This document shows, one piece after another, positions 5,661 through 64,000 of a stretch of DNA of 64,000 nt. The DNA is from Clostridia bacterium. GTDB lineage: Bacteria > Bacillota > Clostridia > Christensenellales > CAG-917. The translations under genes were made by a program, and so were the position numbers. Each line of letters begins with the position of its first letter. Position 1 is the stretch's first letter. The stretch lies in assembly GCA_017461985.1 (NCBI GenBank), contig JAFTSA010000006.1, positions 110 through 64,109 of the forward strand, given 5' to 3'. The notes below the pieces were generated by a model. It saw nothing but the letters and a program-made list of their open reading frames with translations. It did no database searches and was not told the DNA's origin.

Positions 5661-5678
5661 ACAAAATGAAACCATTGA

Positions 5679-5707
5679 AAAAAACCACTCATTTGAGTGG
5701 TTTTTTG
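5679..5707 (+). terminator. Intrinsic terminator after the acyltransferase gene
   Basis: AAAAACCACTC-ATTT-GAGTGGTTTTT. Confidence 0.8.
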
Positions 5708-5889
5708 TTGTCTATTTGGCTTTTCAACATTTTCCCATAGTTTTCCACAGTATCATGGATTTTTGCCCTTGTTTTGTGAGGGTTGGAAACCCCCTGAAAA
5801 AATCCACTATTGACATTGGGTCTTGTATTGTGATATATTGTATACGTATAGTTATAAGTGCGCCTGCATTTGCACGCGCGGAGGCGATT

Positions 5890-8800
5890 ATGAGAAAAAC
5901 AGTCAAGACTTTACTTATTTTGCTTTTGGTGACCTTGTTCACCTGTGTTTTCGTGGCCTGTGGCGAAGTTGAAGCCGAGCCCATTGAAGACGTCCCCCCT
6001 CCCACACACGTGGGCGGCAACGGCTCTAATAGTGGTGATGGCGGAAGCGGTGACGGTGGCGATGGCGGTGACGGCGGAAACGTTGACGTCGCTCCTGTAG
6101 ACCCCACCAGCGGAACACCGGTGTATTTGACTTTCTCCTATTTGAAGCAAGCACCCTCAGTGTTCAAGCACATCTACGTTGAGGACTTCGACATTGCAGA
6201 CATCGAATATCACGTGACCTATGAGTGCATCGTCAACGGCAAGAAGCAATATCTTGCAGGGGAAGGCACTCCGCTCTCAATGGATTTGCTGACAAAGGAA
6301 AGTCGTGACAGACTTGAAAACTTCGGCAAAAACGGCGAAATCAGCGGACATTTCTTCATCTTCGTTGAGTACGATGCGGAATACACTGATGCAGAAGGCA
6401 ACGTGAAGACAAAGACCGTTGAAGGCTCATTTGCAATGCATATGAAGACAAAGGCGGCACTCCTTGAGTTTGTCGAATTGAAATTTAAGTTGAACGGCGG
6501 ATATTCACTCTTTGGCAACTACTCAAAAGCAGACGGCGGAACTTCAACCATAGTGGTTGAAAAGGGCCAAACTTGGACTTGGAACGAGTTTATCACCGAT
6601 TTCCCTGTGTACAAAGCAGGCTATGCAATCGACAGCGTGACTGTGGGCGGAAAAACTTATAATGCCTCATCAACCGACACAATCACCATCAAAGACGACG
6701 CAACAATCTCAGTGGGCTGGACTGAAAACGTCATGCCCATCACCTTTGACATCAATCTCCCCGACGGCGTGACAACTTGGGCACCCGTGGACAAAAACCT
6801 CCTCACCAACTTCAACGAAGCCAACGGCACTTGGTCAGTGGACGTTGAAAAGGGTGAAGGATTTATCCCTCGTCCTTCAGTCAACAACATCGCAACAATC
6901 CCCGGCTACACCTTTGCAGGTTGGCGCACCGCAAACGGCACTGTTTGGAATTTCAACAGACGCGCGGGAGACGAAGCATTCACCCTCTACGCAATGTGGA
7001 CAATCCGCACCTACTCAGTGAAGTTTGTCCTTATGGGCGGTGAATTCAATGCAAACAAGGGCTACACCGACACAGCAATCGCAAGCCTCAAAAAAGCAGG
7101 CATTGACGTGAACTATGCTCTCGGCTATGGCCCTGAAGACCCTGAATACGATCCCGATTCCACAAGAGACTTGTTGGCATTCAAGCCCTATATCGTCACC
7201 TTCACTGGAATCCCCTATGGCGCAAATCTTGCAGACTACTTTGCAACTTGCAAGGTGCGTAGTGACAGTGAAGGCCTCATTTCAATCTCAGCAGATCCTG
7301 CAATTCTTGCAACACAAATCACAAAGAGTGAAGGTTGCTACGAGGTTGACGGCTGGTATACCGAGTCATCATACAACGGTGATGAACTCTACACCGCAGG
7401 GGCAGTCACCGAAGACCTTGTCCTCTATCCCAAGTGGTCATTGAGAGAAGGCCTTGGCGAACAAGAACTGAACGAATACTTCGCAAAGAAATTGTTCAAC
7501 TACACAGTGAAGTCAGACGGCACTCTCCGTATTGACCTCATCATCGATAGCTCAGTCAGTGAACTTGTCATCCCCGACAGCGTCTATATTGACGGCAAGA
7601 AATACACCGTCACCGAAATCGGCGAAGGCGCAATCATGAACATCAAGACCCTCATCACCGTTGATTTGAGTGGGGCAAAATCACTGACACGCATTGGAAG
7701 AAACGCCTTTGCATATTGTCCTAACCTCCGCGAAGTCATCATCCCCGACACAGGCCTCAACGTGACCTATATCGGTGAAAACGCATTCCGTGGAACAGAA
7801 TTCATCAACAGCTACAAGACAGCAACCGGTTATGACTTTGCAGTCATCGGCAGTGTGCTTGTCAAGTACGTGGGTGACACCGCAGTGACAGAAATCAATG
7901 TTGATACTACAAACGTGCTGCTTGCGAATGTGGATACAATCGCTCCCGGTGCATTTAGTGAACTGACCGCACTTGAAACTGTCACCATTGGCGATGGCAT
8001 CAAGTTCATCTATGACAAGGCATTCTACAAGGATACCGCTCTCGCAACAGTCCTTGGCGGCGGTGGTCTTGAATATGTTGCATCAGACGCATTTGACCAA
8101 ACCGCATACGTGTCAACACGTCCCGTTGACGACCCTGCAACTCTCACTGACGAAAGCACCTTCCTCCGCATCGGCAGTATCTATTATCGCTACGTAGGCA
8201 CGGGCAAGAGCGCAGAAATCCCCGAAGGAGTCAAGGTCATCGCACCCAACGCATTCTCAACAGGTCACCTCATTGAAAACATCACCTTTGGTGATGCAAG
8301 CCAAATCAAGTCTATCGGCACAGATGCATTTGCCAACACCAAGTGGATCAGTGAAAACCATACAACCGCAGAAACTGGTGACGCAAACACCTTTGTCCAA
8401 GACGGCTTTGTTGTCATCAACGGCATCCTCATTGCAAAACGTGGTAGAGATGCAGTTGTTGAACTGCCTGACCTTGTGAGAGTCATCGCAACAGGGGCAT
8501 TTGACAACGCATACGTCACCAACCTTACAATAACAGCAGACTCACATCTTGAACTGATTGAAAGAGACGCATTCAACGGCGCAAGCAACTTGAAGGCTCT
8601 CAGTTTCATCAATGCAACTGACAACGTATTCGTCAATTTCAATGACGGCGCATTCTCCAACGAAAACGGAGAAGTCATCAACGACGAGTTCAAGATTTAT
8701 CTCTATCAAGCACCCATCACCACCCTCGGCACAGCAGTCAGCGACAGCGACTCAGATGCAGTGAAGGCTTGGAAGGAACTCTACAAGGGTGCAAGCGAAA

Positions 8801-11145
8801 TGTTTGCAGTGCTTGAAACAAAGAGTGCTCGCATCAACAGCGCAATCGGCTTGCCCACCGAATATCTCTTTGACGGCGTAGCAGTTGACTTTGTGTCAGT
8901 TTGGGATAGCCTCGGTCTACTCAATGCAGGCAAGACGCATATCGTTGACGGCAAAATCGTGGTGAGAAGTGACGGAGTTGAAAGCAAGGAAGACCTTGCT
9001 GTCACAGACGTCATCTCAATTGCAGGAGGCAGAGAAGTGGCTCTTGACGGCGCCGTTGGCGAAGGCAAGACAATGTCCTTCAAGGTGGACGGCGTACAAG
9101 CAGAGGGCTATACATACAGCGTCTATCCTGCAATCAAAGCAAGCACAATGGCAGTCTGGTACGTGGCGGACGACGGCACTGAAGTGGAAGGTCTGCCCAC
9201 TTTCTATACCACACAATCCAACTTCAACGAAGAAGGCTACGTCATCAAGATCAAGTTCAACTACAACAACGCAACGGGAAGCCAAGGCGAAATCCTCCTC
9301 ACCGACGATATGGTGACCGTCACCGGCTACACCCCTGTGTACGGCGTCAACAAGACTCTCCAAATCGACGTTGACTATCATGGACTTGCCGTATATAGAG
9401 TCAACGCAGAGTACTCTGTCAAGAAACCTCAAAGTGTCAGCATTGAGCAATGCTCAGAGATGGCAATTTCAATCAATGCATTGACCGCAGAAATCAACTC
9501 TGTGGCAAGAAACGTCATCCTCAAAGTGACCATGAGCGACGGCACGTTCAAGTACGTCAACATTGACGGAAAGGCAACCTTCATTGCAGTAGTTGATGCA
9601 ATCAACAGAAACGCAACCGCAGAGGAAGTGTCACTTGACACAACCAACCTTGGCTATCACACAGTTGGTCTCCGCTACGGCGCACCTGGTGACTACGTCT
9701 ATTGCACGGTGCTTTACTCAGTCACCTTGAACACAGACGGCTCAATGTTCAACTACACCATTGACGGCGACACAGCAACAATCACCAGTGTCAAGTCAGG
9801 CTATGACTCAACCATTGCAATCCCTGCAAGAGTCCGCCTCACAGACAACGGTGTCTATAACCCCGACAGCGCAAACGAATACACAGTTGTTGCAATCGGT
9901 GACGGCGCATTTAAGGATAGAACAGGTCTTGAATACGTCTATATCCCCGCAACCATCAAGGCAATCGGCAACGAAGCCTTTATGGGTTGCACAGACTTGA
10001 AGCAAATCCGCTCATTCACCGTGACAGAAGCAATTGACTGCGGTCTTAGCACAGGTCTTGTTACATTTACCGAGCAACAAGCAAAATATCTTGGTGAAGT
10101 GACAATCACCGGCGTTGCAGAGGGTGTCAAGGGCGAGATTGAAATCCCCGCAACAGTCACTTACAACAAAGTCCTTGTGGGCGCAGGGGCAGACGGCGTT
10201 GACCTTGACGCAACTTACGTCCTTGACGTAAAACTTGGTGAAGGCGCACTTGACGGCTACAACGGCGCAATCGTCCTCCCCGACACTGAATACTTCCGTG
10301 GATATGCAGAAGCAAACCTCCAAGGCAAGAACGTCACCTTCTACACCGAAGGCAACGGCGACAAGGCATCAAACTTTGTGTTCAGCAACTATGACAACCC
10401 CGTCATCACCTACGCATATATGACTGGCGACGTCATCATCAACTACAGAGCAAAATTCACCGTCACTGACGGCGTCATCGTCATCCCCGAATCAATGGTT
10501 GGCTCACAACCTGCCGAAGGCAGTTCATATGCATTCGAATATGACTACAACATCATCGGCATCAAAGAGCAAGCCTTTGCAAGAGCATATGAAGATGGTA
10601 TGAGAACAATCTATCTTCCCAACTCACTGCGCTACTACGAAGGTGAACTGGAATATCTCTTCGGCACAGGCAACTACGACAAGGTGACACAACACGTCTA
10701 CGACGTGAGAGAAGATGCAATCTATGCACCCAGCAATGCATTCCCCAACGTGGAAACCATCGGCAACAAGGCATTCTACGGATGCACAAGCCTCGGCGAC
10801 CTTGATTTCAGCCTTGCAACAGACCTCAACCACCTTGGCAACTACGCCTTCTACGGATGCACCGCAGTGGTCAATATGGACCTCAGCGCAACCAAGATTA
10901 CAGCAATTGAAGCATCAACCTTCAGTGGATGCACAGCACTTGAAGAAGTCAAACTGCCCACCACCGTCACCGAAATCGGCGACTTGGCATTTGACTGGTG
11001 CACCGCTCTCACAAAGGTTGAAGGCACTGCAAGCGTCACCTACATCGGCGCATACGCCTTCCACAACTGCACCGCATTGACCACCATATCAGTGCCCGCA
11101 GGTGCAACCGTGGCAGACACCGCCTTTGACGGCACAAATCTGTGA
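5890..11145 (+). CDS. Giant surface lipoprotein with BspA-type leucine-rich repeats and Listeria-Bacteroides repeat domains
   Basis: 1751 aa from ATG 5890 (MRKTVKTLLILLLVTLFTCVFVAC, lipobox). The track ORF start at 5596 lies inside the upstream gene/terminator. Gly/Asp/Ser linker, GW..W repeat modules (e.g. YTFAGWRT...LYAMW) and many LRR_5-like units (AF.gCt.L..v.iP..v..Ig..AF). Confidence 0.85.
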   Translation: MRKTVKTLLILLLVTLFTCVFVACGEVEAEPIEDVPPPTHVGGNGSNSGDGGSGDGGDGGDGGNVDVAPVDPTSGTPVYLTFSYLKQAPSVFKHIYVEDFDIADIEYHVTYECIVNGKKQYLAGEGTPLSMDLLTKESRDRLENFGKNGEISGHFFIFVEYDAEYTDAEGNVKTKTVEGSFAMHMKTKAALLEFVELKFKLNGGYSLFGNYSKADGGTSTIVVEKGQTWTWNEFITDFPVYKAGYAIDSVTVGGKTYNASSTDTITIKDDATISVGWTENVMPITFDINLPDGVTTWAPVDKNLLTNFNEANGTWSVDVEKGEGFIPRPSVNNIATIPGYTFAGWRTANGTVWNFNRRAGDEAFTLYAMWTIRTYSVKFVLMGGEFNANKGYTDTAIASLKKAGIDVNYALGYGPEDPEYDPDSTRDLLAFKPYIVTFTGIPYGANLADYFATCKVRSDSEGLISISADPAILATQITKSEGCYEVDGWYTESSYNGDELYTAGAVTEDLVLYPKWSLREGLGEQELNEYFAKKLFNYTVKSDGTLRIDLIIDSSVSELVIPDSVYIDGKKYTVTEIGEGAIMNIKTLITVDLSGAKSLTRIGRNAFAYCPNLREVIIPDTGLNVTYIGENAFRGTEFINSYKTATGYDFAVIGSVLVKYVGDTAVTEINVDTTNVLLANVDTIAPGAFSELTALETVTIGDGIKFIYDKAFYKDTALATVLGGGGLEYVASDAFDQTAYVSTRPVDDPATLTDESTFLRIGSIYYRYVGTGKSAEIPEGVKVIAPNAFSTGHLIENITFGDASQIKSIGTDAFANTKWISENHTTAETGDANTFVQDGFVVINGILIAKRGRDAVVELPDLVRVIATGAFDNAYVTNLTITADSHLELIERDAFNGASNLKALSFINATDNVFVNFNDGAFSNENGEVINDEFKIYLYQAPITTLGTAVSDSDSDAVKAWKELYKGASEMFAVLETKSARINSAIGLPTEYLFDGVAVDFVSVWDSLGLLNAGKTHIVDGKIVVRSDGVESKEDLAVTDVISIAGGREVALDGAVGEGKTMSFKVDGVQAEGYTYSVYPAIKASTMAVWYVADDGTEVEGLPTFYTTQSNFNEEGYVIKIKFNYNNATGSQGEILLTDDMVTVTGYTPVYGVNKTLQIDVDYHGLAVYRVNAEYSVKKPQSVSIEQCSEMAISINALTAEINSVARNVILKVTMSDGTFKYVNIDGKATFIAVVDAINRNATAEEVSLDTTNLGYHTVGLRYGAPGDYVYCTVLYSVTLNTDGSMFNYTIDGDTATITSVKSGYDSTIAIPARVRLTDNGVYNPDSANEYTVVAIGDGAFKDRTGLEYVYIPATIKAIGNEAFMGCTDLKQIRSFTVTEAIDCGLSTGLVTFTEQQAKYLGEVTITGVAEGVKGEIEIPATVTYNKVLVGAGADGVDLDATYVLDVKLGEGALDGYNGAIVLPDTEYFRGYAEANLQGKNVTFYTEGNGDKASNFVFSNYDNPVITYAYMTGDVIINYRAKFTVTDGVIVIPESMVGSQPAEGSSYAFEYDYNIIGIKEQAFARAYEDGMRTIYLPNSLRYYEGELEYLFGTGNYDKVTQHVYDVREDAIYAPSNAFPNVETIGNKAFYGCTSLGDLDFSLATDLNHLGNYAFYGCTAVVNMDLSATKITAIEASTFSGCTALEEVKLPTTVTEIGDLAFDWCTALTKVEGTASVTYIGAYAFHNCTALTTISVPAGATVADTAFDGTNL

Positions 11146-21591: not shown

Positions 21592-23466
21592 TTATTCCGG
21601 AGTGACGGTGTACGTTCCGTCAGTGCAGACTATGGTGTATGATGAGGACTCATAGCGAGTGTCAATTTGTACTAGGCTTGTCCATTTATCATAAGTGCCG
21701 TTGTATGTGACTTCCACTGATTGAGAACTAAAATACATTGCTGTGGTGAATATGGTTGTCAATGTTGAGGGCAAGGAAACCTTTTCAAGGCTTGTGCACT
21801 CGCTGAAAGTGTGTGTTTCGATGTGCTCAAAACCTTCTTCAAAAACGACATTTTTGAGAGATGTGCAACCTTTGAAAAGCTCGGTGCCAGTCTTTTTCAC
21901 AGAGCCTGGGATGACAACATTTTTGAGAGATGTGCAGTATTGGAAAGCGCAATTTGCGATTTCATTGAGAGTGGTTGAAAGCGTCAATGTTTCTAATGAA
22001 GAACAGTAGTTAAATGCGCCATATTCTATCATCTTGACGGAGTTGGGCATGACAAGTTCCTTCAAAGATGTGCACTCATAAAACGCTTCGCGTCCAATGT
22101 TTTCAAGTTGTGAATTGTCGCTGAAGGTGATTGTTTCAAGGTTGGTGCAACCCCTAAACAAAGATTCGTCCAAAGTCTTTACGTGAGAGGGAATATTTAT
22201 GGTGGTCAGAGATATGCAGCCATTAAATGTGTTTGGACCAAATTCTTCAAGATTTTCTGGTAAAGTGACGGATGTCAATGAAGTACAACCAGAAAAAGTC
22301 CTTCCTCTAAACGATGAAACTGAGTCGGGAATTTTAACGACTTTCAAACTTGTGCAACCCTCAAACATGCCTACTCCAAGTCTTTTGATGCCATATGGAA
22401 TTGTCACATCGACCAAACTTTCACAGCAGTAGAAAGCAAAGTCATTGACAAAACTTATGTTGGGAGATAGAGCCGCAGATTTTAAACTTGTACAATATGA
22501 AAACGCGCCGTAGCCTATGTCTACTATGGTGTTTGGCAAAACAACAGATTCAATGCCAGTGTAACCAAATGCACCAGTGCCAATATATTTAAGCTTTCCA
22601 TCCGTGGCAAAATTTATGGTTTTCAGCTGTGAACACATATTAAATGCGCCTTGCTCTACAAATGCCAAACTCGCTGGAAAAGTGATTGATTTAAGAGCAC
22701 TACATCCTCTGAAACAAGAATCAGGAATTTTGCTTAAACCTTCTGGGAGGTTGATTTGTTTCAAAGCACGACAATTTTGGAAAGCAGAGACCCCAAATTT
22801 GTTAATGGTTGAGGGGAGTGTGATGTCCGATAGAGCAGTACAGTCGCTGAAAGCATAATCCCCAATTGATTCTAGCTTTTCGGGCAACTTGATGCTTTTA
22901 AGGCGAGTGCACATAGAAAATGCGTTGCTTGGGATAGCTGTAATTTTGCTTCCACTTTCGAAAATAACAGCAGTGATATGTTTTAGATTTTCATTGCTTT
23001 CGGCTGTATATTTGGTGACATAATTGGGAATCACCAATGTTGTGGGAGCATTATCCTTGACACCTGTAATTTTACAAGTGTTATCAGTGGAGACAAATTC
23101 AAAGTATTTCATTTCTTCTTTGGGTGTCCAACGTGCAAACAACACCAAACCAGCTCTTTTGACGGGAAATCGCTTTTCCCATTTTGTGCCGAGAATGTAG
23201 TTGCCGTTCAGTACGCCATCAACCATATACCAGCCTTCAAAGTCGCAACCGAGATGTTGTTCGGGCTCGCTTACATCAACTTGTCTATGGTTTGTGGTGA
23301 CAAATTTTGTGTTGAATTCGCCAGTGGTGGGGTCTTGGATGATAAGAGTGACGTCAAACTCCTGAAAATCCACGTGCCTAAATCCCGTGTCAGAGCAGGC
23401 GGAAAAAACAAGAAGTGACAACAGTGCCACGGCAAATATTGTGAATATAAGGATAGGTTTTTTCAT
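21592..23466 (-). CDS. Surface lipoprotein with BspA-type leucine-rich repeats
   Basis: 624 aa. Lipobox VFSAC|S. N-terminal GW..W module. About 20 LRR_5-like units (F..CtsLk.v.iP.sv..Ig..aF). AT-richer codon usage than the 5890 paralog class. Confidence 0.8.
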   Translation of the reverse strand: MKKPILIFTIFAVALLSLLVFSACSDTGFRHVDFQEFDVTLIIQDPTTGEFNTKFVTTNHRQVDVSEPEQHLGCDFEGWYMVDGVLNGNYILGTKWEKRFPVKRAGLVLFARWTPKEEMKYFEFVSTDNTCKITGVKDNAPTTLVIPNYVTKYTAESNENLKHITAVIFESGSKITAIPSNAFSMCTRLKSIKLPEKLESIGDYAFSDCTALSDITLPSTINKFGVSAFQNCRALKQINLPEGLSKIPDSCFRGCSALKSITFPASLAFVEQGAFNMCSQLKTINFATDGKLKYIGTGAFGYTGIESVVLPNTIVDIGYGAFSYCTSLKSAALSPNISFVNDFAFYCCESLVDVTIPYGIKRLGVGMFEGCTSLKVVKIPDSVSSFRGRTFSGCTSLTSVTLPENLEEFGPNTFNGCISLTTINIPSHVKTLDESLFRGCTNLETITFSDNSQLENIGREAFYECTSLKELVMPNSVKMIEYGAFNYCSSLETLTLSTTLNEIANCAFQYCTSLKNVVIPGSVKKTGTELFKGCTSLKNVVFEEGFEHIETHTFSECTSLEKVSLPSTLTTIFTTAMYFSSQSVEVTYNGTYDKWTSLVQIDTRYESSSYTIVCTDGTYTVTPE

Positions 23467-54369: not shown

Positions 54370-54918
54370 TTATAGCGTGACCATAGTCACAATTTTTCCG
54401 TCCAATGACTTGAGTGTGACGGTGTTGTTTTCATAGATAGCATAGGAGTGGGGAGTGCCGTCTTTGGGCATAGCCACCGAGCCTACGCAGACGTAGTGCA
54501 CACCATCAACGATGGTGTGATAGGGGGTGTGGAAGTGGCCGTAAAACACCACGTCACCGGGCTTTGCCTTTGTGGTGGGCAGGTCCTTATTCACCTTGTG
54601 TCCGTGGGTGAAGAAAAGTCGGCGGTCGCCGTCCTTCCAACAAAAATCACGGCGGATGGGGAAGGGTGAAATCATTTGGTCCACTTCGCTGTCGCAGTTG
54701 CCCTTGATGAGGAGGAAATCGCCCATTCTTTCTTCAAGGAGAGACTCCACCTTCATAGGTGCATATTCCTCGGGGAAGGGGTTGCGAGGGCCGTGATTGT
54801 AGGTGTCACCAAGAAGCACCACTTTTTTGTCGGCGCTGTCAAGGTCAACCACTTGCCAAAATTTTTTGAGATAAGCGTAGCTTCCGTGGATGTCGGAGGC
54901 AATATAAATCTTTTTCAT
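54370..54918 (-). CDS. YfcE-type metallophosphoesterase
   Basis: 182 aa. DIHG, GD..NHG and GH.H motifs. Confidence 0.75.
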   Translation of the reverse strand: MKKIYIASDIHGSYAYLKKFWQVVDLDSADKKVVLLGDTYNHGPRNPFPEEYAPMKVESLLEERMGDFLLIKGNCDSEVDQMISPFPIRRDFCWKDGDRRLFFTHGHKVNKDLPTTKAKPGDVVFYGHFHTPYHTIVDGVHYVCVGSVAMPKDGTPHSYAIYENNTVTLKSLDGKIVTMVTL

Positions 54919-55952
54919 CAGTATCTTCTGTCGTCGCGTCTGTCGTAATCTCTATCATCACGGCGGTCGCGGTAATCTCTGTCGTCACGTCTATCGTAGT
55001 CGCGTTCACGGCGGTCATAGTCACGTCTGTCGTAATCCCTGTCGTCACGACGGTCGTAACCCCTGTCATCACGTCGGTCGTAGTCGCGGTCATAGTCACG
55101 AGGAGCACGGCGGGTGTAATCCCTGTCGCGGTCGTATCTGCGGTCGCGGTCGTAGTCTATGTCGTCATCTCTACGGGTGCGCATTGCGTGGCGGTCGTAG
55201 TTGGTCTTTGCGCTGTTTCTGCCCGGCTTGAAAAGCATGATTGCAATGATGACTGCAGGCACAGCAATGCCGATGATGAGGATTATGCGGAGAAGCGTAG
55301 ACTTGCTTGTGTCAACGCTTTCACCAAGATTTTCATCGGGGGTTTTGTTGAGGAGGCCTTGACGTGCGGTTTCATCGATGATGTGATAGCTCACGTTTTC
55401 GGTGGTGAAATTCTCTCTTGCCACAAGACCGAAAACAACGTTTTCGTTGAAACTTGCTTGCACAAAGAATTTGTCGCCGTTAAGTCCCAAAAGTTTCACT
55501 GTCCAACCAGTCTTTGTGTCAATGGTGTGCGCGCCAATGGTGACGGTGACACCCTCTTTCAAAAGAAGGTTTTGAGGCAGTGCGTTTTCAAGAGTCACTC
55601 CGTCGTATGCTTTGGGGAGTTCTTGAAGGTTTGACACGTCCACTGTTGCGTTGAGGCCTGCAATATCCAAAATATACACGGTCAAGTCACCGCTGACAAC
55701 CAAGGATTTGACGGGGTAGTAATAACTTTCGATGAGGTAAAAGAGCACGTCACCCGTTTCGCCGTCCACAACTGCAACGTTTGACCCACCGGCGTAGGCG
55801 TTGTTTTCAAGGTCGCTGGGGGCAACGTATGCAAAAACTGCGGTGTCAGAAGCCTCTGCAACGCCTGTTTCACCTTGAAATCCCCAGACCAAAAAACTGA
55901 GGGCAAGGACAAGGATGAGTGCTGAAATAGTGAGAAATTTTTTCATATCCAT
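54918..55952 (-). CDS. Bitopic membrane protein with C-terminal Arg/Asp/Tyr-repeat tail
   Basis: 344 aa. N-terminal signal/anchor, ~200-aa extracytoplasmic domain, TM helix (LLRIILIIGIAVPAVIIAIMLF), then a ~100-aa tail of RDYDRR-type repeats. 1-nt overlap with the YfcE gene. Confidence 0.7.
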   Translation of the reverse strand: MDMKKFLTISALILVLALSFLVWGFQGETGVAEASDTAVFAYVAPSDLENNAYAGGSNVAVVDGETGDVLFYLIESYYYPVKSLVVSGDLTVYILDIAGLNATVDVSNLQELPKAYDGVTLENALPQNLLLKEGVTVTIGAHTIDTKTGWTVKLLGLNGDKFFVQASFNENVVFGLVARENFTTENVSYHIIDETARQGLLNKTPDENLGESVDTSKSTLLRIILIIGIAVPAVIIAIMLFKPGRNSAKTNYDRHAMRTRRDDDIDYDRDRRYDRDRDYTRRAPRDYDRDYDRRDDRGYDRRDDRDYDRRDYDRRERDYDRRDDRDYRDRRDDRDYDRRDDRRY

Positions 55953-56019
55953 AATATTTTACTATATATATAAACAAAAATAAAGAGGTTTAGTCCAATT
56001 TTTTGAAATTTTTAAGATT

Positions 56020-56050
56020 AACGGGCAAAGCCCGTTGTTTTTGTTTTTTT
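56020..56050 (+). terminator. Orphan plus-strand terminator-like hairpin at the left edge of the phage block
   Basis: ACGGGC-AAA-GCCCGT followed by a T-rich run. There is no plus-strand gene upstream. Confidence 0.4.
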
Positions 56051-56340
56051 GCGATGGGTCAAAAACAAAAAAAATGAAAGATGAAAAATAGTGGTTGAGA
56101 TAGAACCGAAAAATAGAAAGTGAAGATTGTGGCTCGGAAAAGAAAAAACAAACACGGTCAACACTTTAAAATTCACCAATCAAAAAGACTGAATAGGAGG
56201 CGGAAAACGGCAAAAAAGGCAGGGGTTTTTCATCTCGTCAAAAATTTTTTTTCGGGGATTAACGTAGTTAGATGCTGGGTTTCGAAAAGTTTTTGGCACA
56301 AAATTTGCATTTTGGCATTTTCGTGGTGTATGGTCGAAAT

Positions 56341-57774
56341 ATGGAAAGCGAAATCATCAAAAAAATCCTTCAAATCGAAAGGGAGGAGAGGCTCAGAAAA
56401 AACGACGCCCTCACCCTCTACAATCGTGACAAAATCCATCAAAAACAAATGGCTTTTCACCGCTCAACCAAGCGCAATCGTTGGGTTTTCGGTGGCAACA
56501 GAAGTGGCAAAACCGAGTGCGGTGCAGTGGAAACTGTATGGCTTGCAAGAGGCATACACCCCTTCAAGGAAAACCGCAGTGGTTTGGACGGCTGGGTGGT
56601 CAGTTTGACAAGAGAGGTGCAACGTGACGTGGCGCAGGCAAAGATACTGAAATACCTCTCCCCTCGCTACATTGAAGAAATCGTCATGGTCAGCGGAAAG
56701 AAGGGCGCGCCTGAATACGGCGTAATCGACCATATAGTGGTGCGAAACGCCCTTGGTGGTCTGTCCAAAATAGGTTTCAAGTCCTGTGACCAAGGACGTG
56801 AGAAATTTCAAGGCGCAAGCCTTGATTTTGTTTGGTTTGATGAAGAGCCACCCGAGGATATTTACGCCGAGTGCCGTATGCGTGTCTTTGACAAAAAGGG
56901 TATGATTTTTGGCACTATGACACCTTTGAAAGGTCTCACTTGGGTGTATGACGAAATTGAAATGAACGTGCGAAACAACCCCGAAGTTTGGACCGTCCAC
57001 ATGGAGTGGAAGGACAATCCCTATCTTGATGAAAACGAGATTGAAGCAATGCTTTCAGTAACCTCTGAAAGTGAGCAGGAGAGCAGACGATTTGGCAAAT
57101 TCACGGTGGGTGAAGGTCTTGTCTATCCGGAGTTTAACCCTGACGTCCACGTCATCGAGCCCTTTTCAATACCTCGCAGTTGGCAGAGCAACATATCAAT
57201 CGACCCGGGGCTTAACAACCCCACCAGTTGCCACTTTTATGCAGTGGACTATGACGGCAACATATACGTGGTTGGTGAGCACTACGAAAGGGGAAAATCC
57301 ATTGACCATCACGTGGAAAAGATTATGGCACTTGCAGACAAACTTGGTTGGCATCGTGACAGCAAGGGCAGGCTCAACGCCCTCATAGACAGCGCCGCAA
57401 CTCAACGTACTCTTGCCAGTGAAAAGAGTGTTGCAGAGCTTTTCTATGAAAAGGGAATTTTGGTGAACACCAACGTAAAAAAGGATTTATACAGCGGAAT
57501 ACAGCGTGTAAAGTCCTTGTTGTGTCAAAATCCCCCGAAACTCTATATCTTCAAAACCTGCACGAATATGATAAGTGAATTGAAGTCATATTGGTGGGGA
57601 CATGACGACAGACCCAAGAAGGTGGACGACCACGCAATGGACGACTTACGATATTTTGTTATGAGCCTACCAGACCCTGCAAAGGAGCAGAAACACACCC
57701 CCTCTGTCATTGAGGCGGACAAAGAAAAACTGATAAGATTCAACAGGAGAAATCAATGGATGAAGAACTCGTAA
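56341..57774 (+). CDS. terL: Phage terminase large subunit
   Basis: 477 aa from ATG 56341. Walker A GGNRSGKTE. Walker B LDFVWFDEEP. C-terminal nuclease-like region. Confidence 0.85.
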   Translation: MESEIIKKILQIEREERLRKNDALTLYNRDKIHQKQMAFHRSTKRNRWVFGGNRSGKTECGAVETVWLARGIHPFKENRSGLDGWVVSLTREVQRDVAQAKILKYLSPRYIEEIVMVSGKKGAPEYGVIDHIVVRNALGGLSKIGFKSCDQGREKFQGASLDFVWFDEEPPEDIYAECRMRVFDKKGMIFGTMTPLKGLTWVYDEIEMNVRNNPEVWTVHMEWKDNPYLDENEIEAMLSVTSESEQESRRFGKFTVGEGLVYPEFNPDVHVIEPFSIPRSWQSNISIDPGLNNPTSCHFYAVDYDGNIYVVGEHYERGKSIDHHVEKIMALADKLGWHRDSKGRLNALIDSAATQRTLASEKSVAELFYEKGILVNTNVKKDLYSGIQRVKSLLCQNPPKLYIFKTCTNMISELKSYWWGHDDRPKKVDDHAMDDLRYFVMSLPDPAKEQKHTPSVIEADKEKLIRFNRRNQWMKNS

Positions 57775-58061
57775 AGGCACTTTTAAAAAAGGCAACGGGC
57801 TACAACTACGATGAAATCACCGAGGAATATGTGGTGGACGAGTCGGGGCAAGCGGTGTTGACAAAGAAGAAAGTGACCACCAAATATTATCCCCCTGACT
57901 CGGGGGCACTGAAGACCTATCTTGAACTGGTTGGCGAAAGCGCAGTTGAGGATATGACTGACGAAGAGTTGCAAAAAGAAAAGGCAAGACTTCTTAAACA
58001 ACTTGCAGATATGAACAAAGGAAAAAGGGGGACGAAGAAAAGTGAAAGTGTACAAACTTGA
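57756..58061 (+). CDS. Small phage protein resembling the C-terminal part of some terminase small subunits
   Basis: 101 aa. ATGYNYDEITEE...KKKVTTKYYPPDSGALKTYLEL recalls the A.GY.YEE...PPD..A motif I remember from Firmicute phage TerS proteins. No N-terminal HTH. Confidence 0.35.
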   Translation: MDEELVKALLKKATGYNYDEITEEYVVDESGQAVLTKKKVTTKYYPPDSGALKTYLELVGESAVEDMTDEELQKEKARLLKQLADMNKGKRGTKKSESVQT

Positions 58062-58476
58062 GGGCAAAACTCGGTGCGCAGAATGTGGTGAAAACGCCGA
58101 ACTTTATTTGGACGTGCTTGACACCCCGCTGTGCAAAAAATGCGGAGTGAAACTCTATAAGGAACTGGGCTTTCACTTTGTGCCCCGTGCCGTACCCAAC
58201 GTGATATTGCGCAGTGAAAAACAGGACGCGCCCCTATCTCATCTTCTTTACAAAGACAAGTACGAAAAAGGGGCAGACAAAGGCAAGGTTGAGGACAATC
58301 CAACAAAGGACAATCATCCAACAAAGGACAACTTGACAAATGGCAATCACTCAAAAGACGAAAGAGCAAAAAGCACGTTTCCTCAGCTTGCAAGAAGTAC
58401 AAAAGAACTTTCCACCCCCGAAAGAGTGCGTATGAAGATAAGACGGCACTTACTTAGACAACAAAAACACAGATAA
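58042..58476 (+). CDS. Phage zinc-ribbon protein, function unknown
   Basis: 144 aa with GTG start. CAECG-x17-CKKCG. Low-complexity basic C-terminus. Confidence 0.45.
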   Translation: MKVYKLEGKTRCAECGENAELYLDVLDTPLCKKCGVKLYKELGFHFVPRAVPNVILRSEKQDAPLSHLLYKDKYEKGADKGKVEDNPTKDNHPTKDNLTNGNHSKDERAKSTFPQLARSTKELSTPERVRMKIRRHLLRQQKHR

Positions 58477-58485
58477 GGAGAAAAT

Positions 58486-60351
58486 ATGAAACAAATTGAA
58501 AACGAACTTGTGTCTTCCGTCCTCAAGGACTTCAAGGAAAGACAGGAAGCAAGACGCCCTCTTGAACTGAATTGGCGACTGAATATGAACTTTGTCATCG
58601 GCAATCAGTTTGCAGAGATTTCCCCTCGAGGCGACATCGAGGACAGAGGTAAGCAATATTTTTGGCAATCCCGTGAGGTGTACAACCATATCGCACCCAT
58701 TTTGGAAACAAGGCTGTCAAAACTGGCAAAGGTGAAAGCAAACGCACCCGTGCGCCCTCAAACCAACGACGACGGCGACGTGGCATCGGCAAAACTTGCC
58801 ACAAAACTATTGAAAGCGGTCAGTGAAGAAAACGACTTCACAGGACTTTTGTCAAAGGCAAACACTTGGAGTGAAATCACCGGCTCGGTGTTTTACAAGG
58901 TGGTGTGGGACGGCGACAAGGGCAAAGCCCTTGACCTTGAAAAGACGGTGAAAGAAGGTGACGTCCGCATCAGTGTATGCTCACCCTTTGAAATCTTCCC
59001 CGAAGACCTTGCAGTGGCAGACGTTGACAAGCAACCCTCAATCATGCACGTGAAGGTTATGTCCGTTGAGGACGTAAAGTCTATGTGGGGTGTGGAGGTA
59101 GACGGTGAAGAAATCGGCGTATTTTCCTTTGACAACACCTCGGTGGCAGGGGGCTTTGGTTATAGCGCAACCGTCCCTAGATTTGTCAGTGAAAAGAAGA
59201 GTGACAGCGTGCTGGTCATTGAGAAATATTCAAAGCCTACGGTGGATTACCCCAAGGGCAGACTTGTCATCGTGGCAGGGGACAAACTTGTTTTTGACGG
59301 CGACCTTCCCTTTGTCAACGGCGAAGAAGGCACACGCACCTATCCCTTTGCAAAGCAACACTGCCTTGACGCGCTGGGCAGTTTCTTCGGCTCAAGCGTT
59401 GTAGAGCGCATTATCCCTGTGCAGAGGGCATACAACACCGTGAAAAACCGCAAACACGAGTTTATGAATCGCATTGCAATGGGTGTCCTTGCAGTTGAGG
59501 ACGGCTCAGTTGACACCGACAATCTTGAGGAAGAGGGGCTTTCCCCCGGCAAGGTGCTGATATATCGTCAAGGAAGCACCCCTCCCATTATGATGAACGC
59601 AGGACAAGTGCCTACGGAGTTTAGCCGAGAAGAGGAAAAACTCTTGAACGAATTTGTGATGATAAGCGGTGTCAGTGAGGTGACAACCTATTCACAAGTG
59701 CCCGCCAACGTATCCTCAGGCACGGCAATATCCCTCCTGCTTGAGCAGGACGACACCCGTATATCCTTGACCGCAGACAGTATCCGAGACGCAGTGCGCA
59801 AGATAGGCAAGCACATCATCCGCCTCTACAAGCAATATGCAAAGACAGAGCGCATCAAACGAGTGGCAGGAGAAAACGGTGAGATTGAAATCACTTGCTT
59901 TAAAGCAAGTGACCTCAACAGCGAGGATATCGTCTTTGACACCGTCAACGAAATTGAGGACAATGTGTCAACCCGCAGAGCAATGGTCTACGACCTGTTG
60001 AAACTGGGGCTCTTCACCGATGAAAGAGGGGTTATGTCCAACCGCACAAGGGCAAAGCTCTTTGAAATCCTCGGCTTTGGCAACTGGGAAAACGGCAGAG
60101 ATATTGACGAAGCCCACATCAACAAGGCAGGCAGAGAAAACCTTATCCTTGAAGATGACTTCATCACGCCTGACCCTGTGGACAATCACGCAATCCATAT
60201 TGACGAGCACACTCGTCTTGCTGTGTCGCAAAGATGTCAAAATGACGAAGCCTTCAAGGAAAGAGTACTTCGCCACATAACCGCCCACAAGGAATACAGC
60301 ACCCTTGACAGCGGAATTCAAAACCTTGAAAAACAAATGGGGGAAATATGA
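58486..60351 (+). CDS. Phage portal protein
   Basis: 621 aa. The size, the position after TerL and the N-terminal ELNWRLNMNFVIGNQ pattern fit portal families. Confidence 0.75.
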   Translation: MKQIENELVSSVLKDFKERQEARRPLELNWRLNMNFVIGNQFAEISPRGDIEDRGKQYFWQSREVYNHIAPILETRLSKLAKVKANAPVRPQTNDDGDVASAKLATKLLKAVSEENDFTGLLSKANTWSEITGSVFYKVVWDGDKGKALDLEKTVKEGDVRISVCSPFEIFPEDLAVADVDKQPSIMHVKVMSVEDVKSMWGVEVDGEEIGVFSFDNTSVAGGFGYSATVPRFVSEKKSDSVLVIEKYSKPTVDYPKGRLVIVAGDKLVFDGDLPFVNGEEGTRTYPFAKQHCLDALGSFFGSSVVERIIPVQRAYNTVKNRKHEFMNRIAMGVLAVEDGSVDTDNLEEEGLSPGKVLIYRQGSTPPIMMNAGQVPTEFSREEEKLLNEFVMISGVSEVTTYSQVPANVSSGTAISLLLEQDDTRISLTADSIRDAVRKIGKHIIRLYKQYAKTERIKRVAGENGEIEITCFKASDLNSEDIVFDTVNEIEDNVSTRRAMVYDLLKLGLFTDERGVMSNRTRAKLFEILGFGNWENGRDIDEAHINKAGRENLILEDDFITPDPVDNHAIHIDEHTRLAVSQRCQNDEAFKERVLRHITAHKEYSTLDSGIQNLEKQMGEI

Positions 60352-61100
60352 AAACACTGAAACTGCACGAACTTAAAGACCAGCTTGAAGAAATCTTGGA
60401 CTTTGTAGAGAAGGACGAGGAACAAGTTGAAGAAAATATTGACAAAAACACCGTCTTTTTAGACGGTGTTTCCACACCCGAAAAAGGTGTAGAAACAGTC
60501 ACTGCGGAGACTCAATCCGCAGAGGACGAAACAGAGGGAGAAATCCTCGAAGACAACAAAACAGAAATAGAAGGAGAGGAACAATCCAAGCCTAAAAAGT
60601 TCAAATCCGTTGAGGAGCTTGAAAAGGCCTATGAAAGTCTTGAAAAGGAATTTACAAGACGGTCACAACGCCTTGCCAAACTTGAAAAGGAAATGAAACA
60701 AGACAAGGTGGAAACTGACGCAGAGTGGAAAGCCAAAGTGGACAAATTCTTCACTGAAAATCCCAGCGCAAAACCCTTTGCAAAGCAAATGTCCGATCAA
60801 ATCATCCGTGACAACACCTTGCGCATGAGAAGTGATTGCCTTGAAACCGCTCTGACGAGAGTGCTTCTTGAGGCCTATCGCGCACCCAAAGACCTTGCAA
60901 CTGACGAAGACTTTTTGAAAGAACATATTCTCGGCTCTGACTTTGTCAAGAAAGCCGTGATTGAAGGGTATATGAAGGACCTTCGTGAGGGCAAACCTCC
61001 CGTGCTCATCAGCGCAAGAGGACAAAACACCATTGCCCCAAGAAGTAAGCCTAAGACCATTGAAGAAGCAGGCAAGATGTTCCGCCAAAATAACAGATAA
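60348..61100 (+). CDS. Phage scaffolding protein
   Basis: 250 aa, acidic and coiled-coil rich, located between portal and capsid genes. 4-nt overlap with the portal gene. Confidence 0.6.
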   Translation: MKTLKLHELKDQLEEILDFVEKDEEQVEENIDKNTVFLDGVSTPEKGVETVTAETQSAEDETEGEILEDNKTEIEGEEQSKPKKFKSVEELEKAYESLEKEFTRRSQRLAKLEKEMKQDKVETDAEWKAKVDKFFTENPSAKPFAKQMSDQIIRDNTLRMRSDCLETALTRVLLEAYRAPKDLATDEDFLKEHILGSDFVKKAVIEGYMKDLREGKPPVLISARGQNTIAPRSKPKTIEEAGKMFRQNNR

Positions 61101-61111
61101 AGGAGAAAATT

Positions 61112-62482
61112 ATGGTCACACTTTCAAACGCAAACAATGCCCTGAAAACATATTATCTGGGCGTACTCGCCAACCAACTCAACGTTGGCATCAACCCCTT
61201 CCTTGCAAAGATTGAGCAAACAACCGCAGACGTCTGGGGCAGGGAAATCAAAAAACTCGTGCCTTACGGCCTCAACGGCGGTGTGGGCAGTGGTTCAGAA
61301 ACAAGCAACCTTCCTGCAGTTGGTGGCAACACCTATGCAGAATTCACTTTGTCACTGAAAAACCTCTATGGTCAAATTGAAATCACTGACAAAGCAATCC
61401 GCGCATCACAAAATTCAGTGGGCGCATTTGTCAACCTTCTCAACGCCGAAATGGAAGGACTTCTTGAAGCAAGCAAGTTCAACTTTGGCAGAATGCTCTA
61501 TGGTGACGGCAGTGGTCTTATCACAAAAACAACCGCACAAACCACCGGCAGTGCAATTCCTGTTGCCAGTGTCAAATGCTTGATGGAAGGCATGCGAATT
61601 GACGTCTATTCAGCAAGCAACACAAAGAATAACGATCTTTCAGGTGGCAGAATTGTTGCAATCGACCGCGCAAACAAGGTCATCTATGTTGATTCAAGCA
61701 CCTCAACAACTTTGGGAGCAGGCAGCAAAATCTACATCCAAGGCTCAAAGAACAATGAAATCACCGGTCTTGAAGCACTCTTTACAGCAGAGGACCTCTA
61801 CGGTCTCTACAGAGAGGAATATCCTTTCCTCTCCCCCTATGTCAAAGAGGAACACAACGGAGTCACCGCAAGTGCAATCCAAAGCGCCATCGACGCCATC
61901 GAAGAAAACTCCGGAAGCACCATTGACTTCATCGTGTGCTCATACGACGTGAGAAAGGGCTACGTTGAAAATATGTCATCAACCCGCACCAACGTGGACT
62001 ATATGACCATTGACGGTGGCTACAAGGCAATTTCATACGCAGGCACTCCTATTGTGGCAGACCGCTTTGTTGAAGACGGAGTTATGTACCTCCTCAACAG
62101 CGGAGACTTCAAACTCCATCAACTCTGCGACTGGCGTTGGCTTGAAGGAGAAGGTGGCAGCGTCCTTCACCAAATCGCAGGCAAACCCGCCTACACCGCA
62201 ACCTTGGTCAAGTATGCAGACCTCCTTTGCTCACGTCCTATGGGTCAAGCAAAGATCGTCTTCACCAAGACCACCACACCCAGTTTCTACACCGTGAAGT
62301 TCAACTCTAACGGCGGCACTGCAGTGGCAGATCAAATCGTCCTCCCCGGCGGACAAGCAGTTGAACCTGTCTCACCCACAAAGTCAGGCAAGAGTTTTGA
62401 CGGCTGGTATTTCAACGGCAGTGAATACGACTTCGCCGACGCAGTGACAGGCGATATGGAAATCGTCGCAGAATGGGCATAG
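61112..62482 (+). CDS. Phage major capsid protein with C-terminal Listeria-Bacteroides repeat domain
   Basis: 456 aa. Position after the scaffold gene. HK97-fold-type MCP pattern (YGQIEITDKAIRAS, LYGDGSG). The last 65 aa are FYTVKFNSNGG...GKSFDGWYFNG...DMEIVAEWA. Confidence 0.7.
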   Translation: MVTLSNANNALKTYYLGVLANQLNVGINPFLAKIEQTTADVWGREIKKLVPYGLNGGVGSGSETSNLPAVGGNTYAEFTLSLKNLYGQIEITDKAIRASQNSVGAFVNLLNAEMEGLLEASKFNFGRMLYGDGSGLITKTTAQTTGSAIPVASVKCLMEGMRIDVYSASNTKNNDLSGGRIVAIDRANKVIYVDSSTSTTLGAGSKIYIQGSKNNEITGLEALFTAEDLYGLYREEYPFLSPYVKEEHNGVTASAIQSAIDAIEENSGSTIDFIVCSYDVRKGYVENMSSTRTNVDYMTIDGGYKAISYAGTPIVADRFVEDGVMYLLNSGDFKLHQLCDWRWLEGEGGSVLHQIAGKPAYTATLVKYADLLCSRPMGQAKIVFTKTTTPSFYTVKFNSNGGTAVADQIVLPGGQAVEPVSPTKSGKSFDGWYFNGSEYDFADAVTGDMEIVAEWA

Positions 62483-62483
62483 T

Positions 62484-62789
62484 ATGAAAGGACTTATCCC
62501 CATTGAAAAGGACTTGTTTTCAATCGCGGACAGACTGAAAGAAGTGGATGAGAGATACAGGGTGTACAGAAACACCTTGGCTCACCGCTTCGAGGTCTTC
62601 ATAGGAGAGGCACTACAATTTGTAGTGCCTTTCCAAAAACTGGACTCTCGCACAGTGGAATACGCAAGAAAAACTCGCATTGAACGAGTGGACAAAATCG
62701 TCCAAGAATTGGACAAACAAAACGAACTGCTTGAAAAGAGAAAAAATCGCAAAATCATTGAGGACGCTCTGGCACAAGCAGGCTTTTAG
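62484..62789 (+). CDS. Phage structural-module protein, unknown function
   Basis: 101-aa ORF, tightly packed after the MCP gene. Confidence 0.45.
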   Translation: MKGLIPIEKDLFSIADRLKEVDERYRVYRNTLAHRFEVFIGEALQFVVPFQKLDSRTVEYARKTRIERVDKIVQELDKQNELLEKRKNRKIIEDALAQAGF

Positions 62790-62797: not shown

Positions 62798-63343
62798 ATG
62801 GAAATCAAAAAAATAATCAAAATTTGTCTTGTCAAAATGGGTGAAAAGGACTTTCTTGACAACCCCACTCTCACCGACGTGCAACAGGAAATCAAGGATA
62901 AATTGCTGTCAGCCTTCAACGTGGCGTACAGCGAGGCGGTCACTGACCTTATGCCCCTCATCACCAAGGAAAAGGTCAATGTGGTAGGGGGAGAAGTGGA
63001 CTGCACGGCTCTTACAAAACAAATGGTGCACCCCGTCCGTCTTGAAGATGCAAGAGGGGTGAAACATCGCTATCACGTTATGCCCACTTTTATCACCACC
63101 GACTTTGACGGAGAGGGCGTTTTGACCTACGCCTACGCCCCTGATGAATATCAGTTTGGTGACACCTTTGAGGACCTTCGTTTCACCGCAGAAACTTTGG
63201 CAGAAGGCACTCTTGCAGTCTACTATTTTGCTTCCCGTGCATTTGACCTTGCCTCAGTCCACGACGACAACTTCCGCACCGCTGTGAAAAAGCAAAAGTA
63301 CAAGGGCAGAGAAATTGTCTTGAAGGAAAGGAGGTGGGGCTGA
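62798..63343 (+). CDS. Phage structural-module protein (possible head completion/adaptor)
   Basis: 181-aa ORF with GGAG RBS. Assigned by position only. Confidence 0.4.
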   Translation: MEIKKIIKICLVKMGEKDFLDNPTLTDVQQEIKDKLLSAFNVAYSEAVTDLMPLITKEKVNVVGGEVDCTALTKQMVHPVRLEDARGVKHRYHVMPTFITTDFDGEGVLTYAYAPDEYQFGDTFEDLRFTAETLAEGTLAVYYFASRAFDLASVHDDNFRTAVKKQKYKGREIVLKERRWG

Positions 63344-64000
63344 TGAAAAGGATTAAGACCTCCTCGTCAAAACTGAAGGTCGGCTTCAAGGGGATCGTCT
63401 ATTCAGTGGATGAAGACGTCCTCGGCGTGGAGTACAGCCCCGAAACCTACAACTTCACTTTCCGCGCAGGAGTGCTGAAAGGGGATGTCGGAGTCAGCGA
63501 AGCGTCTGGCTACAACCGTGATTCAGTGCTCATCCGTCACGCTCTGCCCAGGCTTGGAAGCGGAGTCAAAATAAACGACGTATTCGTCTATCATCGCATG
63601 ACGGATGGTGAGTATGACGACAGACTCATCGTTCAAACCACAGACGGCAACTTTTTCAACACCAAAATTTTTGAAGAGGACATCTGGCACGCAATGCCTT
63701 ATCCCTACACCAAAGAAAGGGTGTGCGGAGTCAGTTATAACTATGAGGGCAATGACGTATTTTTGATGTCCTCAAATGATATCGGTCTTATGATTTATGA
63801 TGGTGAACAGGCAACCAAAGTGGAAGGCGGACCGGGGTTTTCATCCATCGCAATACACTATGAAAGAGTGTTTGGCGTGGAAAGTGGCAAGGAAAATCAG
63901 GTGTGGTTTTCTTCAACACTAGACCCCACAAACTGGACTGTCAGCGGTGATAGCGCGGGCTACGTCACCTTCCAAGACGAGTGTGGTGATTGTATCAAAG
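63343..64000 (+). CDS. Phage structural protein, 5' partial (open to window end; absent from ORF track)
   Basis: ATG 63343 overlaps the previous stop (TGATG). I hand-translated 219 codons and found no stop (MKRIKTSSSKLKVGFKG...). Confidence 0.6.
   Translation, partial: MKRIKTSSSKLKVGFKGIVYSVDEDVLGVEYSPETYNFTFRAGVLKGDVGVSEASGYNRDSVLIRHALPRLGSGVKINDVFVYHRMTDGEYDDRLIVQTTDGNFFNTKIFEEDIWHAMPYPYTKERVCGVSYNYEGNDVFLMSSNDIGLMIYDGEQATKVEGGPGFSSIAIHYERVFGVESGKENQVWFSSTLDPTNWTVSGDSAGYVTFQDECGDCIK

Follow-up and report, generated by a model that had tools for sequence, protein, structure and literature searches.

A Listeria-Bacteroides repeat domain fused to the major capsid protein of a putative gene transfer agent-like cassette in a Clostridia bacterium

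The capsid gene and its C-terminal domain

The stretch of DNA analysed here (the window; 64,000 nucleotides of contig JAFTSA010000006.1, assembly GCA_017461985.1, from a Clostridia bacterium of the order Christensenellales) ends within a block of phage-like packaging and structural genes, here called the cassette, and the subject of this report is the major capsid protein gene of that cassette (61112–62482, + strand). Its 456-aa product was divided with Pfam, PHROG, an AlphaFold2 (AF2) model and Foldseek into three parts: an HK97-fold core (residues 1–382; 61112–62257, +), delimited by PHROG 14242 and by relatives that lack a tail and ending in the conserved residues ...CxRPMGQAKIVF; a Thr-rich linker of nine residues (383–391, the TKTTTPS region; 62258–62284, +), placed from alignments; and a domain of the Flg_new family, also known as the Listeria-Bacteroides repeat or TIGR02543 (62285–62479, +). 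The last is of the InlB B-repeat type, the fold of which is beta-grasp-like, and was assigned by PF09479, a profile match to InlB and model confidence. An initial annotation, made from the letters of the DNA, had already named the open reading frame (ORF) a capsid protein and its tail a Flg_new module; the 65 C-terminal residues translated from 62285–62479 (+) are identical to those it quoted, and both assignments held in the searches below.

Residues 3–374 of the ORF match PHROG 14242 ("major head protein") with an E-value of 1.2e-49. The AF2 model has a mean predicted local distance difference test score (pLDDT) of 85.2 and a predicted template modelling score (pTM) of 0.76, and in Foldseek searches of the PDB it matches the capsid proteins of Pa223, Mic1, A-1(L), SU10 and HK97 with a probability of 1.0. 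The best match in BFVD, a library of viral models, is the capsid protein of Arthrobacter phage Jasmine (template modelling score 0.71 for the query, TMq, and 0.80 for the target, TMt). The gene follows those for the portal and the scaffold, the position expected of a major capsid gene. On the strength of the PHROG match, the model and the Foldseek matches the ORF is an HK97-fold major capsid protein.

Matches to the family and to InlB show that the tail, too, is a true member of Flg_new. Against a curated gathering cut-off of 27 bits for PF09479, residues 393–453 score 49.2 bits in the whole protein (E = 5.9e-13; profile positions 1–64 of 65), the 65-residue segment alone scores 54.1 bits (E = 1.7e-14), and the same tail reached 52.8 bits in a genome-wide Flg_new scan. 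A profile built from 134 homologues matches the InlB chains 2y5p, 7nms and 1m9s over residues 380–456 (E = 0.005–0.008). In the AF2 model the tail segment (pLDDT 84–93) consists of strands only and has no helix, and the prototype InlB B-repeat is likewise beta-grasp-like with the helix absent. Flg_new is the sole accessory domain, as no Ig-like domain (Pfam I-set, Big_2 or fn3) was detected in the capsid protein at E ≤ 0.01. The fusion is not a sequencing accident, because PF09479 was found in all 120 of the closest database homologues (61–90% identical, 455–479 aa).

Within the tail-bearing clade of the capsid tree described below, the ratio of nonsynonymous to synonymous substitution rates (dN/dS) of the domain is 0.03–0.64, typically 0.15–0.3, and that of the core is 0.02–0.19. 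Across 87 orthologues the residues V395, F397, G401, G402, Q408, V410, P419, P422, F429, W432, G436, F441, A453 and W455, which belong to the fold core, are near-invariant, and exposed positions of the domain, 404, 406 and 407 among them, have entropies of 2.5–3.4 bits in the same sequences. In our reading of the alignment positions 404, 406 and 407 would correspond to strand beta-2 of InlB, where a binding patch has been proposed (PMC8900821). The low dN/dS, the invariant fold core and the variable exposed positions together indicate a tail under purifying selection, i.e., a domain that is kept folded while its surface diversifies. The linkers of relatives are 7–30 residues long, rich in Gly, Ser and Thr, and variable (column entropy 2.1–3.1 bits).

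A capsid protein with a Flg_new tail is rare among sequenced phages, yet within a large clade of the cassette it is the norm. Among the best 150 representatives, clustered at 50% identity, from a library of 1.8 billion proteins, the full-length ones are 30–54% identical to the capsid protein studied here, and nearly all of these are 380–400 aa long and end with the capsid core; the capsid proteins of isolated Arthrobacter, Microbacterium and Cellulosimicrobium phages align only to residues 3–382. Closer to the host, inheritance was surveyed in 41 genomes, this genome and 40 relatives. The tail is present in 16 of the 29 relatives that carry the capsid gene; copies at least 61% identical to the one here have it and more distant copies end near residue 382–394. 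A wider scan, with one genome per species and an alignment of nine more closely related sequences as the query, found a relative in at least 576 species, and 80 species-level loci of Christensenellales were sampled for analyses of synteny and gene length. Twenty-eight of these 80 loci encode the tail, so that the survey of related capsids called for by the initial annotation found the extension in some and not in others; in the tail-less loci the protein ends 5–10 residues past ...GQAK(L/I).... When the cores are placed on a tree, 26 proteins with the tail group together with three that lack it in a single clade with good support, and one extra tail-bearing protein is placed in a neighbouring group. 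The distribution of the tail on this tree takes a minimum of four changes, two of which are forced by supported branches, and the simplest history would be that the tail was gained once or twice and later lost a few times. Some other relatives have short low-complexity C-terminal tails, and the range of linker lengths together with these short tails suggests that the capsid C-terminus tolerates additions. Databases contain thousands of Flg_new-tailed capsid sequences under the names "phage major capsid protein" and "uncharacterized repeat protein", and searches of the literature did not yield an account of a capsid protein that carries Flg_new. As a separate observation, in three loci (L056, L080 and L100) the conserved GQAK-L-x-GIT ending of the capsid protein is replaced by unrelated Lys-rich tails (e.g., ...YGRAKSLTKKGQKKG...), which are likely frameshifts or assembly errors at one 3'-proximal spot.

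The same module is used by the bacterium in proteins of its own. The genome-wide scan found Flg_new in eight other large ORFs, six of which start with a lipoprotein signal; in four of these six the first residues after the lipobox cysteine are already Flg_new-like, and one of the host proteins carries 14 adhesin-type MBG_2 repeats. The position of Flg_new near the lipobox suggests a membrane-proximal stalk or an envelope-binding role in the lineage. Flg_new lipoproteins of this genome (G000) lie at C9:95633-98239, C6:99714-102218, C10:36411-43637, C5:14646-16130 and C5:133434-135815, and in four of these five Flg_new-like sequence begins within about 10–35 residues of the lipobox cysteine, while in the protein at C5:133434 it lies about 150 residues further in. 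The claim of the initial annotation that surface proteins of the host share the module is thus borne out at the scale of the genome, but only in part within the window. There, one marginal module (6808–6993, +; 25.8–26.9 bits, or 27.4 bits with neighbouring matches), containing the YTFAGW...LYAMW cited in the initial annotation, was found in the leucine-rich repeat (LRR; BspA-type) lipoprotein of 1849 aa at 5596–11145, and the protein at 21592–23466, to which the module had also been ascribed, has no Pfam match at E ≤ 1e-3.

Gene content and inheritance of the cassette

The cassette consists of ten ORFs in about 9.8 kb, in the order large terminase, small terminase-like ORF, (Zn-ribbon ORF), portal, scaffold, capsid, two small neck ORFs, nozzle and DUF7934. 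The first gene (56272–57774, +) encodes the large terminase (TerL; Terminase_6N, Terminase_6C and phrog_2), which is single-copy per genome in relatives. The following 101-aa ORF (57756–58061, +), found in 70 of the 80 loci, resembles the C-terminal part of a small terminase (TerS; phrog_309, E = 2e-7) and aligns only to positions 195–242 of the 319 in that profile; no DNA-binding domain was detected in it, though none was specifically excluded. Between the TerS-like ORF and the portal gene lies a 144-aa ORF (58042–58476, +) with a Zn-ribbon motif in its translation (CxxC...CxxC). It has tblastn matches in seven loci (L029–L033, L035 and L036), all among the eight closest, and none in the other 73, and it looks like a recent lineage-specific insertion in an otherwise fixed cassette. 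The portal protein (58486–60351, +) is of the P22/SU10 type (PF16510, E = 1.6e-21; PF23899, E = 2e-11; phrog_156). The acidic and helical scaffolding protein (60348–61100, +; 75 of the 80 loci) was assigned by its position between the portal and capsid genes. Downstream of the capsid gene are a 101-aa ORF (62484–62789, +), conserved in 68 of the 80 loci and possibly a head-completion or adaptor protein, and a 181-aa ORF (62798–63343, +), an adaptor candidate with a length of 176–187 aa in 45 of 46 loci (the outlier is 81 aa). No Pfam or PHROG family matched the scaffold ORF or either of these two.

The two genes at the end of the cassette would build the tail. A 480-aa protein, encoded from 63334 (+) past the window end at 64000 to what would be position 64776, was modelled with a pLDDT of 90.7, and its Foldseek matches (best TMq 0.74, E down to 1.7e-21) are tail-complex chains of Pa223, VP1, GP4, Pan3, SU10, PhiM1, P22 and T7, including gp12, the nozzle protein of T7, and an entry whose title refers to the nozzle and fibre complex of PhiM1. 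Its sequence profile matches the SU10 tail chain 7z47_G, deposited as "Surface protein", with an E-value of 2.7e-4. The model thus predicts a podovirus tail nozzle or hub of the P22 gp10, T7 gp12 or SU10 type, which points to a podovirus-type particle. The last gene encodes a 368-aa DUF7934 protein (PF25588, E = 2e-80; 9940–11046 in L004, the continuation of the contig, about 830 nt past the window end), which evolves fast, with identities from 95% down to 26% among relatives, and is coiled-coil-rich by the behaviour of its profile. Compared with the PDB the profile gave coiled-coil noise only, and the protein is tentatively taken as a probable distal tail needle or fibre. Apparent internal stops in DUF7934 of some relatives, and ORFs called as very short in L030, L045 and L046, were artefacts of alignment or of start picking, and the ORFs are intact.

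The phage-like block is confined to about 9.8 kb, because host genes directly flank both of its sides: thyA and the genes for a GH2 enzyme, a metallophosphatase and a membrane protein upstream, and an ABC/FtsX transporter and a ParA/NUBPL ATPase downstream. No integrase, repressor or replication genes were found, and no lysis gene was recognisable save for a weak amidase-family PHROG match on the nozzle protein. The genes that follow DUF7934 in relatives have their counterparts in this genome at dispersed housekeeping loci, and no second phage-like lysis or fibre locus emerged by that route, which did not include a search for endolysin or holin families.

Two observations concern the upstream border. 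A strong terminator-like hairpin (TAACGGGCAAAGCCCGTTG) followed by a T-run lies on the coding strand at 56019–56047 (+), about 230 nt upstream of the TerL start and within a 320-nt gene-free leader. It does not terminate the neighbouring gene, because that gene is divergent, and it may control the cassette by attenuation or antitermination; the leader contains no Rfam family, and a LexA/Cheo-box-like motif (GAAC-N4-GTTC) was not found around the start of the cassette. The adjacent upstream gene (54918–55952, −) encodes a membrane protein with a tail of about 100 aa made of Arg/Asp/Tyr repeats. It co-occurs with the cassette, its product having weak tblastn matches at the equivalent position in about 15 of the 80 loci, eight of them beside thyA-GH2-metallophosphatase synteny.

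Among the surveyed genomes the capsid gene is present in single copy in all 12 of the genus and in 22 of the 25 of the family, and is found in 7 of the 16 from other families of the order. The spacing from TerL to DUF7934 is equal everywhere, with a span of 8.9–10 kb in most genomes, and thyA lies 3.4–3.9 kb upstream of TerL in this genus (where both are on one contig) and in two other genera (the three are g1, g5 and g10). The identity of TerL to the copy in this genome follows that of thyA closely (Spearman 0.92, 21 genomes), and the corresponding coefficient for the capsid protein is 0.77. All 80 sampled loci have the same gene order, and gene lengths are conserved. Many of the species in the scan are labelled Christensenellales or Christensenellaceae metagenome-assembled genomes (MAGs), the rest being mostly unclassified Clostridia, and the sources are the guts of humans, mice, rabbits, ruminants and chickens. 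Of the 51 related contigs in IMG/VR, most are short and carry the same cassette. There is one exception to the one-copy rule: genome G033, of the same order, has two diverged copies of TerL and the capsid gene (C1:988388-989542 and C1:2225465-2226616), with capsid proteins 52% and 38% identical to that of this genome. This could possibly reflect a second acquisition or an old duplication.

Two features by which a gene transfer agent (GTA) is recognised are found here. First, the structural and packaging genes form a cluster that has no genes for replication, integration or lysogeny and is too small for a complete phage. Second, locus, copy number and divergence parallel to host genes all indicate vertical inheritance. 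The lack of replication and integration genes, the single copy, the fixed order and locus, and the divergence parallel to thyA argue that the cassette is a domesticated, chromosomally inherited, GTA-like element, similar in kind to FpGTA of Faecalibacterium prausnitzii, with GTA activity predicted from genomics. The initial annotation had taken the phage-like genes for a prophage distinct from the host, a view that gives way to that of a vertically inherited GTA-like cassette of podovirus type.

Proposed role of the domain

The following explanation is put forward. In one sub-lineage of the cassette the capsid gene would have gained, once or twice, an in-frame 3' extension coding for a flexible linker of Gly, Ser and Thr followed by a single Flg_new domain (InlB B-repeat type) about 65 residues long. 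HK97-fold capsid proteins have their C-terminus on the outer surface, as illustrated by display on T7 gp10, by phi29 BIG2 and by the C-termini of encapsulins, and with the C-terminus in that position each subunit would expose one module outside the shell, a placement predicted from fold topology. The module would most likely serve as a built-in adhesive decoration that keeps particles on or near a surface, be it the envelope of a recipient cell or the mucus and glycans of the gut, and would not be the primary receptor-binding device. Capsid-borne adhesins have been described on phages (PMC7602432). The adhesive role is argued by analogy with Hoc-type decorations, with the head spikes of RcGTA and with the presence of the same module in host surface lipoproteins, and is somewhat favoured. 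The structural and contextual parts of the explanation, taken by themselves, are highly probable. For the whole, i.e., the capsid of a GTA-like cassette that displays a Flg_new domain with an adhesive role, our estimate is a probability of about 0.58.

Several points weigh against this explanation. The cassette is known here from its genes, and particle production, retention of the domain after assembly, binding and GTA activity itself are all projections from genomics. The AF2 model is of a single chain, from which the placement of the domain in the assembled capsid is not readable. The function of Flg_new and B-repeats is poorly understood even in InlB (PMC8900821). The three tail-less members of the tail-bearing clade imply that the domain is dispensable for assembly. 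Finally, the domain evolves faster than the core, with a mean pairwise identity of 49% against 75%, and weak constraint would explain this as well as adaptation to a ligand does.

The alternative that survives best, unlikely as it is, is that of a structural cement, comparable to the P22 I-domain or to a fused equivalent of lambda gpD: Flg_new would dock on neighbouring subunits or capsomers and stabilise a small capsid against DNA pressure, and would bind no external ligand. Auxiliary domains inserted in coat proteins are known to stabilise capsids (PMC7602432), BIG2 of phi29 makes contact with a further component of the capsid, and a "sticky patch" for protein-protein contacts is present on the InlB B-repeat (PMC8900821). 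The linker is moreover not of low confidence in the AF2 model (pLDDT 81–87), which might reflect a defined, docked position. A Gly/Ser-rich linker that varies from 7 to 30 residues nevertheless looks more like a tether than like part of a precisely docked arrangement. A fixed interface between domain and core should also be co-conserved on both sides, whereas the surface of the domain is highly variable and the core conserved, and the domain is missing from most relatives and from three members of the tail-bearing clade.

It is improbable that the domain is a nearly neutral passenger, i.e., a host Flg_new module that the capsid gene picked up at its 3' end and that is cheap to carry and without specific function. 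The domain does evolve at about twice the rate of the core and was lost at least three times, and other relatives bear short C-terminal tails that appear meaningless. A neutral extension of 200 bp would however be expected to gather stops and frameshifts over the span in question, in which the domain has been kept intact across dozens of species-level lineages at 60–85% core identity, with dN/dS well below 1 in most pairs and with fold-core residues that are invariant in 87 sequences.

There is little to favour an ordinary prophage, inducible or decaying, in which the domain would help a true virus to adhere, even though the genes are unmistakably phage structural genes, the 51 related contigs are listed as viral in IMG/VR and the related genome G033 has two copies. 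A block of about 9.8 kb that is bordered by housekeeping genes at either end and has neither integrase, repressor, replication nor recognisable lysis genes does not fit this view; nor do the identical content and order in 80 species, the chromosomal position conserved across genera or the divergence parallel to thyA. The conserved lengths of all genes imply that the block is not decaying, and the IMG/VR matches are mostly short contigs with the same cassette.

It is tempting to speculate that the module is a kin-targeting device, by which particles bearing a form of the module specific to the lineage attach to cells of that lineage, through homotypic contacts or by a common envelope ligand, as the lipoproteins of the producer carry the module near the lipid anchor and weak homotypic contacts have been proposed for the InlB B-repeat, but this is a long shot. 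If true, it would mean a built-in recipient specificity that is encoded in the capsid protein and co-evolves with the host surface, and a new way to address gene-transfer particles.

The capsid-mediated mobilisation of DNA in these taxa is just being discovered (PMC12946183), and the module is fixed in a large clade of what appears to be a host-owned, GTA-like particle system that is widespread in uncultured gut Christensenellales. Should the domain bind envelopes or mucus, it would shape where particles end up and hence who swaps DNA with whom in the gut. Being a single unit of about 65 residues with many natural variants, the tail also makes the Flg_new/B-repeat family, which is poorly understood, easier to study by experiment, and it suggests that the C-terminus of this capsid protein tolerates the display of a folded domain.

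Comparison with known systems

Capsid proteins with covalently fused accessory domains are known, examples being BIG2 at the C-terminus of phi29 gp8 and the T7 protein 10B. The description of the decoration as unusual in the initial annotation therefore stands insofar as Flg_new-tailed capsids are rare in sequenced phages, but it does not stand for the cassette, in which they are the rule in a large clade, nor for fusion to a capsid protein or the use of Flg_new on a virion as such (see Dp-1 below). The BIG2 domain of phi29 gp8 belongs to a wider class of Ig-like domains on major head proteins (PMC7602432). It resembles the tail studied here in being a small all-beta domain, covalently fused to an HK97-fold capsid protein and, as predicted for the tail, present on the outside once per subunit; it differs in being an Ig-like beta-sandwich on a lytic phage, whereas the tail is a B-repeat, described by sequence and model, on a chromosomal GTA-like cassette. 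T4 Hoc, T5 pb10 and N4 gp17 likewise place many adhesion-type domains on the capsid, are not needed for assembly and are thought to hold particles on surfaces (PMC7602432); the model of "bacteriophage adherence to mucus" belongs here (Barr et al., 2013, PMC3696810, as cited in PMC7602432). In contrast to the fused tail with its other fold and putative ligand, they are separate, non-covalent, Ig-like proteins for which glycan binding has been shown. The tail may thus work like Ig-like capsid decorations but is no member of that class.

The head spikes of RcGTA bind the capsule of the recipient and raise the transfer frequency, although they are not essential (PMC7296036, PMC10218006). They are, as the tail would be if the analogy holds, a capsid-borne adhesin on a GTA particle. 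In RcGTA, however, which is found in Alphaproteobacteria and has a siphovirus-like particle, the spikes sit at the vertices and are built from base and fibre proteins of their own, whereas the clostridial cassette, described here from its genes, would place one domain on each subunit of a podovirus-like particle.

Among 50,697 phage records the only clear virion protein with Flg_new is the tail tube protein Gp49 of Streptococcus phage Dp-1 (HQ268735.1), annotated "Listeria Bacteroides repeat domain". As in the capsid protein, the domain is at the C-terminus of a major virion building block; unlike in the capsid protein, it is on the tail tube, and the two domains are 35% identical. A further good match, in MT838705.1 (L109; 4.96 kb; "UNVERIFIED: Bacteriophage sp."), was set aside as it appears to be bacterial rather than phage DNA. 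Its ORFs, by reading of their translations, encode a release-factor RF3-type GTPase and a Flg_new surface protein with an S-layer-homology-like C-terminus. The B-repeat of InlB from Listeria monocytogenes (PDB 2Y5P, 7NMS) belongs to the same family as the tail (profile E = 0.005) and shares its fold-core residues. In InlB, however, the repeat lies internally in a secreted invasion protein, and there is still debate about its ligand and its function (PMC8900821).

The closest counterpart of the cassette as a whole is FpGTA I, a 10.5-kb operon of ten ORFs in Faecalibacterium prausnitzii (Borodovich et al., Nat Commun 2026, PMC12946183), the particles of which are about 40 nm across and carry about 8.5–9 kb of host DNA (PMC12946183). 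The same paper reports GTA-like packaging in Christensenellaceae MAGs without naming the responsible genes, and a text search of it found no mention of a decoration, Ig-like or repeat domain or adhesin (PMC12946183). The two systems are alike in the kinds of genes: a TerS-like ORF, TerL, portal, scaffold, capsid and short-tail proteins, no replication genes, and a genus-wide distribution. They differ in that the TerS-like gene is upstream of TerL in FpGTA and downstream of it in the cassette, and in that FpGTA has a second locus for fibre, receptor-binding and lysis proteins, a counterpart of which was not sought exhaustively here. The accessory domains described so far as fused to capsid proteins are almost all Ig-like, whereas the capsid protein of this cassette carries a B-repeat module that is typical of bacterial surface proteins.

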